Position numbers and translations under genes: made by a program. A model generated the notes under the pieces. That model searched no databases. It saw nothing but the letters and a program-made list of their open reading frames with translations, and was not told where the DNA came from. From Candidatus Heimdallarchaeota archaeon (GTDB lineage: Archaea; Asgardarchaeota; Heimdallarchaeia; Heimdallarchaeales; Heimdallarchaeaceae), in NCBI GenBank assembly GCA_021399345.1, contig JAAFKI010000045.1, positions 128,001 through 192,000 on the forward strand: a stretch of DNA of 64,000 nucleotides, given 5' to 3'. This document shows, one piece after another, positions 48,149 to 51,812 of the stretch; position 1 is the first letter of the stretch; the number at the start of each line of letters is the position of its first letter.

Positions 48149-49006
48149 TTAGATTTCGTAATGCAGAATGGTTTGTGCTACTTTAACAGCTTCTAAAGTA
48201 GGCTTTACATCGTGAGTTCTAATGATGTGAGCACCATTTACAAAAGCAATTATAGTTGCACCCAATGTCCCAAAAAGCCTTTGATCAGGAGGTGCATCAT
48301 TTAGTACCTTGCCTATTGATGTTTTTCTGCTTATACCAACATAAACAGGTTTGTTCAGTATCCTGAGTTCTTCTAAATTCTTTATAATTACATAATCATG
48401 ATGGTAATCTCTAGCTTCCCAGCTACCAATACCAGGGTCAATAACGATTTTTGTTTCATCAATACCGTATTTAATACCAATTGCAATACTTTTTCTTAGT
48501 TCAGTGATGATATCATTAATTAGATATACATCGCCTGGCTCAGTTCTAGCGGCCATAACAACAGCTGTTCCATCAAAATCAGCAATACATTTAGCTATTT
48601 TTTCTTCTTTCTTAAAACCAGAAATATCGTTTATGATGTTAACTCCCTTATTCAATGAATGTTCAGCAACTGCTGAACGTTGAGTATCAACTGAAATTTC
48701 AATACTGTTGTAACTACTTAGAACATCCATTGTTACTTCCAATGTTTCCTTAATAATTTGAAGTTCTTTTATTTCATCTACTCTACCTTCACCACCATAA
48801 ATCTGAATAGGTCTAGTAGATTGAGCGCCTAAATCAATGCCATGCACACCTTCGTTTATCATGTTGGCAACCATTTTTTCTAAATCATCTGATGAAGAAA
48901 CTATTGATCCTAGATAGAATGATGCCTCTGATAGATTAACTACTCCAATAATTTTTGCAGGATGTTTATCTCCAACTAATAATTTGCCCAAAAATCCTTC
49001 AATCAT
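48149..49006 (-). CDS. folP: Dihydropteroate synthase
   Basis: GVVNLS..SFY, IDLGAQSTRP, ISVDT, INDISG, IDPGIG, GISRK, IRTHDV. Confidence 0.93.
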   Translation of the reverse strand: MIEGFLGKLLVGDKHPAKIIGVVNLSEASFYLGSIVSSSDDLEKMVANMINEGVHGIDLGAQSTRPIQIYGGEGRVDEIKELQIIKETLEVTMDVLSSYNSIEISVDTQRSAVAEHSLNKGVNIINDISGFKKEEKIAKCIADFDGTAVVMAARTEPGDVYLINDIITELRKSIAIGIKYGIDETKIVIDPGIGSWEARDYHHDYVIIKNLEELRILNKPVYVGISRKTSIGKVLNDAPPDQRLFGTLGATIIAFVNGAHIIRTHDVKPTLEAVKVAQTILHYEI

Positions 49007-49018
49007 AACAACATCTCT

Positions 49019-49810
49019 TTATTCATTTGTTTTGCTAATATAAGGTCCCATAAACATACATTCTTCAGGAGAGATAAGAGTGTTGAGATCCATTTCTTCA
49101 TCTTTGGATATTCTTACCATCGGAAAACCTCTGATTATTGCAAAAGGAATCATTTCATCTGTTTCTCCCATTACAATTTCTGCAGCTGTTGCTAGTTGAT
49201 CAGCTATTGCTCTAACTGTAATATGCATGGGTCTTCCAAAGAGATCATTTTTCCCTCTCACATCAAGAATTGATAAAAAACCATAAGTAGCTAATGCGCA
49301 ACCCACTGTCCCTAATCTCAAAGGTGTAGTTCTTGAATCAGCTATGATAATCCCAACATGCTTTTTCACTTTTTCAAAAATTCGTTTGTGAATATTCTCT
49401 GCTGATTTCTTGCAATTTCTTGGTAAAAGGATTATCTTCTCTTTTCCAGAATTCGATTGATCTGCTCCCGCATTTGCTAATAGACCATACTTGTTAATGG
49501 TAGTAATTGCCCCAGGAACAGCCCCCGTATAATTACCATTAGATTCATCTAGTATAACTTGAGCAAATTCCGGTTCCATATGGGCATTCTTAGCAAGTTC
49601 AATTGCTTCTTTAGAAGGTTTAATAGATGAATATGACACGATACCATCTTCGACAACTGCAACTACTTTACTTGCAATGACAAGAATATCATCATCTCTG
49701 AACTCTATTTCACTTACTCTAAGTGACTCCTCAAGAATAGAAAGTAAATCATCACTTTCTTCTACTAATTTGTAAGAGGGTATAGGTATAATCTCCAAAT
49801 TTGGCATCAT
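49019..49810 (-). CDS. cofE: CofE-family gamma-glutamyl ligase
   Basis: LVIASKVV, ANAGADQSN, IIADSR..PLRLG..G.A, DLFGR, ADQLA..A..VMGE. Confidence 0.88.
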   Translation of the reverse strand: MMPNLEIIPIPSYKLVEESDDLLSILEESLRVSEIEFRDDDILVIASKVVAVVEDGIVSYSSIKPSKEAIELAKNAHMEPEFAQVILDESNGNYTGAVPGAITTINKYGLLANAGADQSNSGKEKIILLPRNCKKSAENIHKRIFEKVKKHVGIIIADSRTTPLRLGTVGCALATYGFLSILDVRGKNDLFGRPMHITVRAIADQLATAAEIVMGETDEMIPFAIIRGFPMVRISKDEEMDLNTLISPEECMFMGPYISKTNE

Positions 49811-49877: not shown

Positions 49878-50717
49878 TTAAGCCAGAAAAGCTGCTAGTA
49901 ACCACGAAATTGCTATGATAATTACAGCAACCACATTCAGAACAGCATATAGATTGGATGTTTCTTCATTGTAAATGTGATTAACATCTCTTACTATTTC
50001 ATTCAATTTTGTATCAATAGATTCAAGAATGTCTTTACCTTCTCCTCCTTCAGTAAACTGTTCAGTTGAGGTGCTTAAAACATCAATAAATCCATGTAAC
50101 ATTTTTTTGTCAACTTCAAGCAAAGTAGGCGATGTAATTGTATGCAGTTTTTCGTGTAACCGTTTAACTTCTTCTAAAGTTAACTGTGGTATTTCCCATT
50201 TTATATTAAATTCAACTAAATTTGCTAGATGAGTGGTTAAATTATCATAATATATTCCAAAAGGTATGGCCTTGTAATCTAATTCATTAACCAATCTAAA
50301 GAATTTTATTTCTAAATCCTCTTGTTTTGATGATTTATAATATTTCGAAGGGTCAACAACCAATGCTACAGCTTGAGGGAATAGGTTCTGATAGGTTCTT
50401 TGAGTTCCTTTATCTGTTCCTGAGAGGAAGCAACCATATGAAGGATGAGTATGAGCCCAACCAACAATGGTTTCATCCTTATCCCTTTTGTACAAATCTT
50501 CAACAATCTGAACCAGAGCTTCATCACTAAGAACTACATATGTTGATGTTTGTTCTTGTCTTCCAGTATCAAAATCAGTAATTACTAATGTTCCCTCATC
50601 ATTAACATAACCTAACAATAAACCCGCTGATTCTTTTGATTTATCTAACGAATCAACTGCTAGCATCTTAGCTAAAACATATGCGGAAATTAGAATCTCC
50701 TTTTTTGAGTGAGTCAT
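49878..50717 (-). CDS. JAMM/MPN+ metalloprotease with C-terminal coiled coil and TM tail anchor
   Basis: ESAGLLLG, VGWAHTHPSYGCFLSGTD (H-x-H-x7-S-x2-D), ALVVDP; C-terminus YAVLNVVAVIIIAISWLLAAFLA. Confidence 0.9.
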   Translation of the reverse strand: MTHSKKEILISAYVLAKMLAVDSLDKSKESAGLLLGYVNDEGTLVITDFDTGRQEQTSTYVVLSDEALVQIVEDLYKRDKDETIVGWAHTHPSYGCFLSGTDKGTQRTYQNLFPQAVALVVDPSKYYKSSKQEDLEIKFFRLVNELDYKAIPFGIYYDNLTTHLANLVEFNIKWEIPQLTLEEVKRLHEKLHTITSPTLLEVDKKMLHGFIDVLSTSTEQFTEGGEGKDILESIDTKLNEIVRDVNHIYNEETSNLYAVLNVVAVIIIAISWLLAAFLA

Positions 50718-50765
50718 CTCTCAAATATCCATTGTTTTCGTCTATAAAATATTTACCCTTCCCTT

Positions 50766-51812
50766 TCATATAAAACTATTGATTTCCTTTCCTATAGGTT
50801 GCTCTGTCAGGAAATAGTAAGCGAAATCTTTGAGAAGTTCAATATTTGGATTGTCAGCAGGTAAATTTTGGACTGTGGTTTTATCCAATATATCCATTAA
50901 TGCCCAGATTGCCAAGAATAGGTCTAGAGGAAATCCTTTTGGATAGAGTGTTTCCAACGGTTGAGAGTTTATTTCTCTCAAGTGTACACTGTATCCCAAA
51001 ATGAACTGTTTGATGTCTTCTATGGTGACAGGGATTCCTTTTGATTCTCTATATTCAAGAAATGCTTGTCTCCCGAAAAATGTACCAATATCTTCAAACC
51101 TATCAAATGCCCCTTGCATCCAAAAAGTTGGATCTATGAGAGCTATGTTTAATACTTCGTTCTGAGGAGAAGCTCTAATCATAAGATTACTCTGATGAAA
51201 ATCTCCAAAAGCATCACTTCCACCTTGTGATGAGGATATCATTTCTAGTAAGATTCTTGATTTATCCATTATCTCATGCTCATTTGTTTGACCACCAAAA
51301 ATGGCTAGAACAAGTCTTCGATATAGTTCTTCATAAATGTCTATCATTACAGGACGAGGTTTTCCTTCATGAATTATAGATAAAACATATCCACCCCAGA
51401 AACTCTTATCGTTTACATCATGAGCATCCTCATAATTAATACCTGTAACTCCTTCATAAGCAATGAAAGTTGGAGATTTTAAGTTCACATAGATGTATCG
51501 AGGAATTTTAACAACTGATCTAGTTGAAAACTTTTTCTCCAAAAAAGAAGAATTTCTGATTTCAGTAATAACTTCTGTAGGACTTTCCATGAATTTAATT
51601 GCTAGTTTAGTTTTATGGTTTCCTAATTCAGAACTATAAAAAACATCAATAACATAAACATCACCAAACCTTCCACTTGCCTTATGATATTCAATATCAT
51701 TTATTTTAACTTCTAAAATATCTTTTCCAAATTCTCCGCGTGCTTCATCAATTAAATAATACGAGAAGGAACTGACAAGCTGAATTAATAGAGGTTTGAG
51801 TGATTCACTCAT
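50766..51812 (-). CDS. Protein-kinase-like (APH/choline-kinase fold) phosphotransferase
   Basis: SGRFGDVY loop, LAIKF, GDFHQSNL catalytic loop, ALIDP. Confidence 0.78.
   Translation of the reverse strand: MSESLKPLLIQLVSSFSYYLIDEARGEFGKDILEVKINDIEYHKASGRFGDVYVIDVFYSSELGNHKTKLAIKFMESPTEVITEIRNSSFLEKKFSTRSVVKIPRYIYVNLKSPTFIAYEGVTGINYEDAHDVNDKSFWGGYVLSIIHEGKPRPVMIDIYEELYRRLVLAIFGGQTNEHEIMDKSRILLEMISSSQGGSDAFGDFHQSNLMIRASPQNEVLNIALIDPTFWMQGAFDRFEDIGTFFGRQAFLEYRESKGIPVTIEDIKQFILGYSVHLREINSQPLETLYPKGFPLDLFLAIWALMDILDKTTVQNLPADNPNIELLKDFAYYFLTEQPIGKEINSFI

Follow-up and report, generated by a model that had tools for sequence, protein, structure and literature searches.

A predicted tail-anchored, Rpn11-like JAMM protein of Heimdallarchaeota as a candidate membrane-bound ubiquitin isopeptidase

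The closest studied relative of the protein described here is CsRpn11 of Caldiarchaeum subterraneum (PDB 6FJU, 6FJV, 6FNN), a JAMM protease of 202 amino acids (aa) that was purified and crystallised as a soluble protein and is monomeric by size-exclusion chromatography with multi-angle light scattering (PMC6043591). CsRpn11 is reported to process a ubiquitin precursor and ubiquitinated proteins and not to cleave SAMP precursors (PMC6043591). Here we describe a gene from a 64,000-nucleotide stretch of a Candidatus Heimdallarchaeota archaeon assembly (GCA_021399345.1, contig JAAFKI010000045.1, positions 128,001 to 192,000; hereafter the window) whose product joins an Rpn11-like catalytic domain to a helical stalk and a predicted C-terminal membrane helix. 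In the searchable literature, which takes in PMC6043591, PMC5654768, PMC9192718, and PMC1779556 and does not cover subscription journals, we met with no account of a membrane-anchored archaeal JAMM. An earlier note, made from the letters of the window, had read this gene as an integral-membrane JAMM isopeptidase with intact MPN+ residues in an Rpn11/CSN5/AMSH-like context, and had remarked that characterised JAMM enzymes are generally soluble, which is true of CsRpn11, the closest one with a solved structure. The features of the gene, in coordinates of the window, are as follows.

49878..50717, minus strand: whole gene for the tail-anchored JAMM protein, 279 codons and a stop (open reading frame list and translation).
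50250..50705, minus strand: MPN+/JAMM catalytic domain, residues 5-156 (Pfam, PDB, Foldseek, and hhalign matches).
50631..50633, minus strand: codon of Glu29 (KESAG), the expected general base, invariant in both alignments of relatives.
50412..50453, minus strand: zinc-binding motif HTHPSYGCFLSGTD, residues 89-102 (H89, H91, S99, D102), by its H-x-H-x7-S-x2-D spacing.
50043..50249, minus strand: helical linker or stalk, residues 157-225, including the conserved LHGF(V/I)D(V/I)LS at 207-215 (AlphaFold2 and column conservation).
49962..50030, minus strand: heptad-like membrane-proximal segment, residues 230-252, with six a/d layers.
49881..49952, minus strand: predicted C-terminal transmembrane helix (tail anchor), residues 256-279, with invariant N261 and W272 (hydropathy and conservation).

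By its site and predicted fold, the protein reads as an MPN+ enzyme with an intact site, of the same kind as Rpn11 and CSN5 and less close to AMSH, and in this the earlier note was right. The Pfam model JAB (PF01398) covers residues 5-114 with an E value of 6e-16 and 58.7 bits against a cut-off of 22.5, and the Prok-JAB model matches more weakly, at 27.3 bits. The full MPN+ set is present, namely E29 in KESAG and H89-x-H91-x7-S99-x2-D102 in HTHPSYGCFLSGTD, and these five residues (E29, H89, H91, S99, and D102) do not vary among 19 close relatives or among 17 distant ones (24-50% identity). The Ins-1 segment (T51, G52, Q54, Q56, T57, T59, V61) is almost invariant across the orthologue alignment as well. 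When the PDB is searched by sequence, the best match is CsRpn11 (6fju, E 4.7e-24, 37-38% identity over about 150 residues), followed by Rpn11 (8.7e-18), CSN5 (4e-14), the AMSH-like Sst2 (2e-11), and BRCC36 (1.7e-3). An AlphaFold2 model built on the orthologue alignment (mean predicted local distance difference test score, pLDDT, 72.7) places the MPN domain at residues 8-156, and Foldseek matches this model to the CsRpn11 and Rpn11 MPN domains with a TM-score, by target, of 0.79-0.86, in the same order as the PDB search. Profile comparison by hhalign with alignments of eukaryotic Rpn11 (5e-30) and CSN5 (3.6e-28) spans residues 1-145 only in both cases. Public release of the sequence goes back at least to the Heimdallarchaeota AB_125 assembly (our locus L010), and the family's public annotations read hypothetical, Mov34/MPN/PAD-1 family, or "proteasome lid subunit RPN8/RPN11".

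The protein ends in a helix of 24 uninterrupted apolar residues (256-279), with nothing after it. The Kyte-Doolittle mean over 19 residues (KD19) is 2.68 at this helix and below 1.2 everywhere else in the protein, and a simple sum over the helix on the Hessa scale gives an insertion energy of about -2.4 kcal/mol. With a single C-terminal transmembrane helix, no signal peptide, and no second transmembrane segment, the protein has the layout of a tail-anchored protein; we base this assignment on hydropathy, conservation, and the AlphaFold2 model, in which residues 226-278 form one continuous helix. A first search retrieved 47 homologues, of which 44 are full length (277-294 aa, 53-98% identity; where a source is named, it is Heimdallarchaeota or Heimdallarchaeaceae), and all 44 of these end in the same type of helix (KD19 2.5-3.0). 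The earlier note had described a terminal hydrophobic helix without a luminal tail and had held that orthologues lacking it would speak against a membrane anchor, and both the helix and its retention in every full-length orthologue bear it out. Our crude hydropathy rule also flagged two eukaryotic control rows as tail-anchored, namely a CSN5 whose end is rich in Ala and a protein resembling Rpn11 (KD19 1.92), and we judged these flags to be false positives of that rule.

An apolar terminal helix could also be an assembly helix buried in a soluble multi-subunit complex, in the way that the C-terminal helix of Rpn11 lies in the lid bundle. The eukaryotic Rpn11 representatives do end in a fairly hydrophobic helix too (KD19 about 1.57-1.59), and in Foldseek a loose alignment with full-length Rpn11 and CSN5 extends over 260-297 columns. 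Nevertheless, the KD19 of 2.5-3.0 over 24 unbroken apolar residues lies far above the threshold of 1.6 and above the Rpn11 values, and the hhalign similarity to Rpn11 and CSN5 stops at residue 145, well short of the helix. The Pfam domain RPN11_C (PF23594), which, like CSN5_C, is readily found in the eukaryotic controls, is not matched in the protein, the stalk at residues 157-225 matches neither it nor any other Pfam family, and CSN5_C reaches only a non-significant E value of 0.13 on the C-terminal region. By these profile searches, no relation of the stalk and anchor to RPN11_C or CSN5_C can be detected. There is also no MPN- (Rpn8-like) partner among the MPN genes of the 88.6%-complete genome, where only two genes match the JAB or Prok-JAB (PF14464) models and both are full MPN+. 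We therefore consider a buried assembly helix very improbable, and a helix lying in the membrane remains our preferred reading.

Between the catalytic domain and the membrane helix, the AlphaFold2 model begins with a loop of poor prediction (160-178), near whose start a helix is assigned at 159-167. Two further helices (181-193, 201-216) follow, and then the continuous helix that runs on to residue 278. Within this last helix, positions L231, I234, L238, I241, V245, and I248 hold only I, L, V, M, F, or Y in 18 orthologues and keep a strict 3-4 spacing, giving a stripe of six core layers (231-248) over about 21 residues, or about three heptads. When the 45 residues preceding the membrane helix are shuffled, 0.6% of the shuffles attain six layers (0.006). 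A polar break, NEETSN, follows the stripe and leads into the membrane helix. The earlier note's account of a helical region followed by a heptad-like segment is accurate in every detail. The stripe is present in the Heimdall-type relatives and missing from the short Frey, Jord, and Hermod forms. Residues 157-279 had no usable match in a feature search of the ESM Atlas.

The earlier note had gone further and likened this tail to that of a SNARE, which raises the possibility of a SNARE-like tail-anchored protein in which the coiled coil would serve membrane fusion or tethering and the MPN domain would be a regulatory head. The protein does share with SNAREs a generic tail-anchored topology with a heptad stripe beside the membrane, and prototypic SNAREs have been reported from Heimdallarchaeota (10.1101/810531). 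However, a SNARE motif has 16 layers over about 60 residues with a Q or R zero layer (10.1101/810531), whereas the stripe here spans about 21 residues with six layers and lacks a Q/R zero layer, and a search of the last 85 or 123 residues against Pfam gives no match to a SNARE-type profile, synaptobrevin included, even at E <= 10. The absence of the stripe from shorter members of the same clade counts against such a role as well, and the strictly conserved catalytic site speaks against a merely regulatory head. We regard this explanation as close to refuted; of the SNARE comparison, only the general tail-anchored topology stands.

The tail-anchored form is found well beyond the close homologues. 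An exhaustive search of 1.8 billion representatives yielded 2316 relatives, and among the best 100 of these about 45 (210-300 aa, 25-50% identity) carry a terminal hydrophobic helix. By the labels of the metagenome-assembled genomes (MAGs) concerned, the architecture occurs in Heimdallarchaeota (278-312 aa), Jord- and Freyarchaeia (214-235 aa), Baldrarchaeota (232-245 aa), and Hermodarchaeota (231 aa), and also in one Thermoproteota-labelled MAG whose sequence groups with Jordarchaeia. Within the class of the source genome, an orthologue is present in 28-29 of the 31 genomes of family f1 and in four further families. The terminal helix is lacking in three other kinds of JAMM from Asgard and DPANN archaea, namely the 229-242-aa JAMMs of ubiquitin operons, a type of about 300 aa, and 154-164-aa proteins of Micrarchaeota that adjoin E1 genes. 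The JAMM family of about 300 aa (loci L054-L079, e.g., L063 5959-6864) is without a membrane helix, and ...DY.QK.QKMP.L... is its conserved C-terminal motif. This family is common in MAGs labelled Hodarchaeota or Promethearchaeota; families f5 and f6, which are without the tail-anchored form, have as many as three copies of it per genome.

We placed these proteins in a maximum-likelihood tree of 152 MPN-domain columns and 76 rows, which is unrooted and has a long eukaryotic branch. One bipartition holds 34 tail-anchored archaeal proteins and two exceptions, one in which a short charged tail comes after the helix and one truncated at a contig end, and this group is supported by an ultrafast bootstrap (UFBoot) value of 97 and a Shimodaira-Hasegawa-like approximate likelihood ratio (SH-aLRT) of 82, and appears in 98% of bootstrap trees. 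Separate from it and from one another lie the operon- and 300-aa-type proteins, the DPANN proteins, and eukaryotic Rpn11 with CSN5, the last forming a starred clade apart from all archaeal rows. The tail-anchored form is thus a distinct lineage, probably of single origin, as far as the MPN domain tells; being unrooted, the tree says nothing on which archaeal lineage is nearest to eukaryotes. The rows include Rpn11 and CSN5, from both of which the tail-anchored group stands apart, and leave out AMSH, BRCC36, HvJAMM1, and CsRpn11. We considered the protein as an Rpn11 lid orthologue and rejected this; it has neither an RPN11_C domain nor, in the 88.6%-complete genome, an MPN- partner, and it falls apart from the eukaryotic clade.

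The source assembly (3.27 Mb, 199 contigs, 88.6% complete) also contains a ubiquitin system. The second of its two JAMM genes encodes a soluble MPN+ protein of 239 aa on another contig, within a ubiquitin operon of E2, JAB, RING E3, a 223-aa multi-pass protein, a ubiquitin-like protein, and E1. Against CsRpn11 and Rpn11, the tail-anchored protein scores 88.7 and 68.2 bits and the operon JAMM 43.7 and 39.9 bits, and by these scores the former is the more Rpn11-like of the two. The operon's RING E3 (L005 6796-7869; contig C136:30795-31868) is predicted to be polytopic, with hydrophobic helices, a Ser/Arg-rich linker, and a C-terminal RING; the gene for the 223-aa multi-pass membrane protein (L005 7856-8527) comes next after it, and both are kept in loci L085 and L086. 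The operon's ubiquitin-like protein (L005 9453-9812) ends in ...STAG without an extension and has an acidic N-terminal extension of about 45 residues. A second ubiquitin gene (C123:71543-71755, minus strand, locus L003) has 80 codons and ends in ...TKGG-L, so that its one-residue Leu extension needs trimming, and it lies 2-7 kb from a Vps28 gene (C123:68903-69469) and two Snf7 genes (C123:64429-65539) of the endosomal sorting complex required for transport (ESCRT) set.

We propose that the protein is a membrane-anchored isopeptidase for ubiquitin or ubiquitin-like proteins, acting mainly on ubiquitin and facing the cytoplasm, and we give this a probability of roughly 0.6. Residues 1-156 would be the catalytic domain and the following 100 or so helical residues a stalk, whose heptad stripe would run into the C-terminal membrane helix. 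Since the protein has no signal peptide and nothing after the helix, we infer that the helix is inserted post-translationally and that the protease sits at the cell membrane on its cytoplasmic side. Self-association, or docking to another membrane protein, may be the task of the heptad stripe together with the invariant Asn within the membrane helix (N261). The earlier note had thought of a deubiquitinase or desampylase for membrane cargo; in our reading the substrate would most likely be ubiquitin or a ubiquitin-like modifier, cleaved from membrane proteins or membrane-bound ones, and trimming the one-residue extension of the ESCRT-linked ubiquitin precursor is a possible extra role. The protein may thereby be a membrane-resident counterpart of the soluble operon JAMM, opposing the operon's membrane-embedded RING ligase.

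Several observations weigh against this proposal. The stalk of the AlphaFold2 model is of low confidence (pLDDT 35-74), and the flank on the cytoplasmic side of the membrane helix (NEETSN) is acidic, not basic. The genome does encode an ArsA/Get3-family ATPase (4e-81) and an EMC3/DUF106-family protein (1e-17), but ArsA-family matches occur in 14 of 14 control genomes and are hence weak evidence on insertion. No ubiquitin, E1, E2, or RING homologue lies within 6 kb of any tail-anchored JAMM gene in 80 loci, so that the link to ubiquitin comes from the homology of the catalytic domain alone. We likewise rejected the protein as a ubiquitin-operon JAMM of the CsRpn11 type, given the same lack of neighbouring ubiquitin, E1, E2, and RING genes. 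The genome also has four ThiS/MoaD-like genes, which makes another ubiquitin-like protein possible as a substrate, and the gene pairing described below is missing in one protease-bearing family, the kinase family occurring without the protease in two others.

The ThiS/MoaD-like genes lead to a variant of the proposal in which the protein would be a membrane-anchored isopeptidase for a tag other than ubiquitin, i.e., a desampylase acting on ThiS/MoaD-type SAMPs or on a Urm1-like protein. It would gain from the fact that the genome has no separate small Prok-JAB gene of the HvJAMM1 type, the same two JAMM genes alone matching PF14464, and from the tail-anchored JAMM gene never being linked to the ubiquitin operon. 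Yet the JAB score of 58.7 bits is far above the Prok-JAB score of 27.3 bits, the small E1-linked JAMMs of DPANN archaea form a separate starred clade, and CsRpn11 cleaves a ubiquitin precursor and not SAMP precursors (PMC6043591). We therefore hold a non-ubiquitin tag to be rather unlikely, and ubiquitin remains our preferred substrate.

The gene's nearest neighbour lies directly upstream on the same strand.

50766..51812, minus strand: APH/choline-kinase-fold protein of 348 aa, 48 bp upstream of the JAMM gene (fold search).
50718..50765, minus strand: 48-bp spacer with a TATA-like AATATTTTATAG about 30 bp before the ATG (direct sequence reading).

A T-run lies 3' of the JAMM gene. Among the sequencing runs searched, none of RNA was listed as containing the locus. 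The kinase-like protein has no Pfam match (including the APH and choline-kinase families) or PDB sequence match even at E <= 10. Its AlphaFold2 model has a pLDDT of 89.7, and the top Foldseek matches are PsiK, APH(9), macrolide phosphotransferases, MTR kinase, and choline kinase (E 1e-9 to 1e-7). The residues expected of a kinase fold are invariant in the family, namely beta-3 K73, helix-C E84, the catalytic D204-x4-N209, and the metal-binding D227. On this predicted structure the neighbour belongs to a divergent APH/choline-kinase-like family, placed by fold search only. Across the class, we surveyed 83 species-level genomes, in which protease and kinase family occur as follows.

Family f1: protease in 28-29 of 31 genomes; kinase family in 31 of 31, with an adjacent orthologue in 27.
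Family f4: protease in 12 of 12; kinase family in 11 of 12, adjacent in 6 and 1.8-2.4 kb apart in 5.
Family f7: protease in about 11 of 12; kinase in 0 of 12, i.e., protease without kinase.
Families f5 and f6: protease in none; kinase family in 24 of 24, i.e., kinase family without protease.

In family f1, 28 genomes have a full-length protease, and in 27 of these the kinase orthologue immediately precedes it on the same strand, the exception being at a contig edge. The pairing of the protease with this APH/choline-kinase-fold kinase is real and long-lived, but it is confined to one order of Heimdallarchaeia and is obligatory for neither family. A predicted complex of the kinase-like protein with JAMM residues 1-256 scored 0.00, below the mark, and we counted it neither way.

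This partner raises the possibility of a JAMM hydrolase outside protein tagging, acting for example on a small-molecule or lipid-linked amide in a pathway shared with the kinase-fold enzyme. Some JAMM proteins of bacteria do have roles in pathways for cofactors or siderophores, the one neighbour that is conserved, a kinase, finds its best structural matches among small-molecule kinases, and no gene of the ubiquitin system is nearby. The 37-38% identity to a ubiquitin-specific enzyme points the other way, as do the strong conservation of the Ins-1 hairpin segment, which holds the ubiquitin tail, and the fact that the protease does without the kinase both in family f7 and among the Jord, Frey, Baldr, and Hermod forms. 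We give a role outside protein tagging only a slim chance and keep to a membrane-anchored ubiquitin isopeptidase.

The other surroundings of the gene vary with lineage. Downstream in the window (48149-49810, minus strand) lie a cofE gene (F420-0:gamma-glutamyl ligase family) and a folP-like (pterin-binding) gene; this block is inverted in L021-L023 and missing from L024 and L025, which places it outside the JAMM unit. The cofE and folP genes, together with divergent acidic-protein and longin-roadblock genes, are syntenic within family f1 only. Nearly all genomes of the family also carry a paralogue of the kinase-like gene (E about 1e-60), with the source genome's own copy at C169:203284-204324, about 11 kb past the window's end; in many relatives it has one in-frame stop (TAA, TAG, or TGA, depending on the genome), and the source genome's copy is open. 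In a second Heimdall lineage, a 515-aa PilB/T2SSE-type secretion ATPase is directly upstream of the JAMM gene, with the kinase-like gene beyond it (L029 4372-5916, L030 4371-5915, L031 4356-5900, L035 3306-4904), and downstream of the JAMM gene in these loci are head-to-head P-loop kinase-like paralogues (ATP-cone and AAA_18/AAA_33). In Frey-, Baldr-, and Hermodarchaeota, the short JAMM gene is preceded by another conserved pair, encoding proteins of about 391-417 aa and 255-269 aa without a Pfam match (L037 3842-5092 and 5097-5861; also L032, L043, L050, L058, and L046), and hhalign of the kinase family against these pair genes found no relation.

Asgard archaea have eukaryote-like ubiquitin and ESCRT genes, and a conserved membrane-anchored Rpn11-like protease would be the first candidate ubiquitin eraser at the Asgard membrane itself. 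The predicted tail-anchored protease occurs in at least five Asgard classes, and in the source genome it is found together with a putatively membrane-embedded RING ligase and an ESCRT-linked ubiquitin. New in this work are the spread of the form beyond Heimdallarchaeia, the tree, the census of two JAMM genes, the polytopic RING E3, the ESCRT-linked GG-L ubiquitin, and the limits of the kinase pairing. A broader and more speculative idea is that the protein is the resident deubiquitinase of an Asgard ubiquitin-ESCRT membrane sorting system, a tethered functional forerunner or analogue of AMSH and Doa4. It would remove ubiquitin from membrane cargo that the polytopic RING ligase has tagged, return it for reuse, and be switched, in Heimdallarchaeales, by the adjacent atypical kinase. 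We find this idea doubtful as a whole. If it were true, reversible and regulated ubiquitination of membrane proteins would predate eukaryotes.

Among known systems, the protein is most similar to CsRpn11, in sequence as well as in fold; both are archaeal and share the MPN+ motif and the Ins-1 segment, and CsRpn11 acts on eukaryote-like ubiquitin. In contrast to the soluble 202-aa CsRpn11, however, the tail-anchored protein has 279 aa, with a 100-residue stalk and a predicted C-terminal membrane helix, and its gene is never found beside ubiquitin genes, while CsRpn11 is described as part of ubiquitin modification operons (PMC6043591). The operon-type Asgard JAMMs and the tail-anchored JAMMs form separate groups in the tree, from which CsRpn11 itself was left out. 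Eukaryotic Rpn11/PSMD14 and CSN5 share the JAMM chemistry and fold, with a profile-profile match over the MPN domain, but the tail-anchored protein is without RPN11_C, CSN5_C, or an MPN- partner, and there is no evidence of a lid or signalosome. The desampylases of the HvJAMM1 type are likewise archaeal MPN+ proteases that take off ubiquitin-like tags; they are short, soluble Prok-JAB proteins, whereas the tail-anchored protein fits the eukaryote-type JAB model better and has a stalk and anchor.

In the job that we propose for it, the protein would be analogous to AMSH/STAMBP and Sst2, which are JAMM isopeptidases for ubiquitinated membrane cargo, and the genome does have a ubiquitin-ESCRT cluster. 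AMSH differs in being soluble and recruited via ESCRT binding, and it resembles the tail-anchored protein less in sequence (2e-11 to 1e-6); in the tail-anchored protein, JAB and Prok-JAB are the sole Pfam matches, with neither an MIT domain nor any other AMSH-type N-terminal domain, and the MPN domain starts at residue 5. As for the membrane anchor, USP30 is a mitochondrial membrane-anchored deubiquitinase. USP19 is reported to be a tail-anchored deubiquitinase of the endoplasmic reticulum (10.1101/2020.10.05.326363). Both share with the protein predicted here a deubiquitinase on one membrane helix with a cytoplasmic catalytic domain, a likeness by analogy only, as the USP fold is that of a cysteine protease, the tail-anchored JAMM would be a zinc metalloprotease, and the two folds are unrelated. 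The tail-anchored JAMM would thus be a second example, in an unrelated fold, of the design of USP19 and USP30, a deubiquitinase on a single membrane helix.

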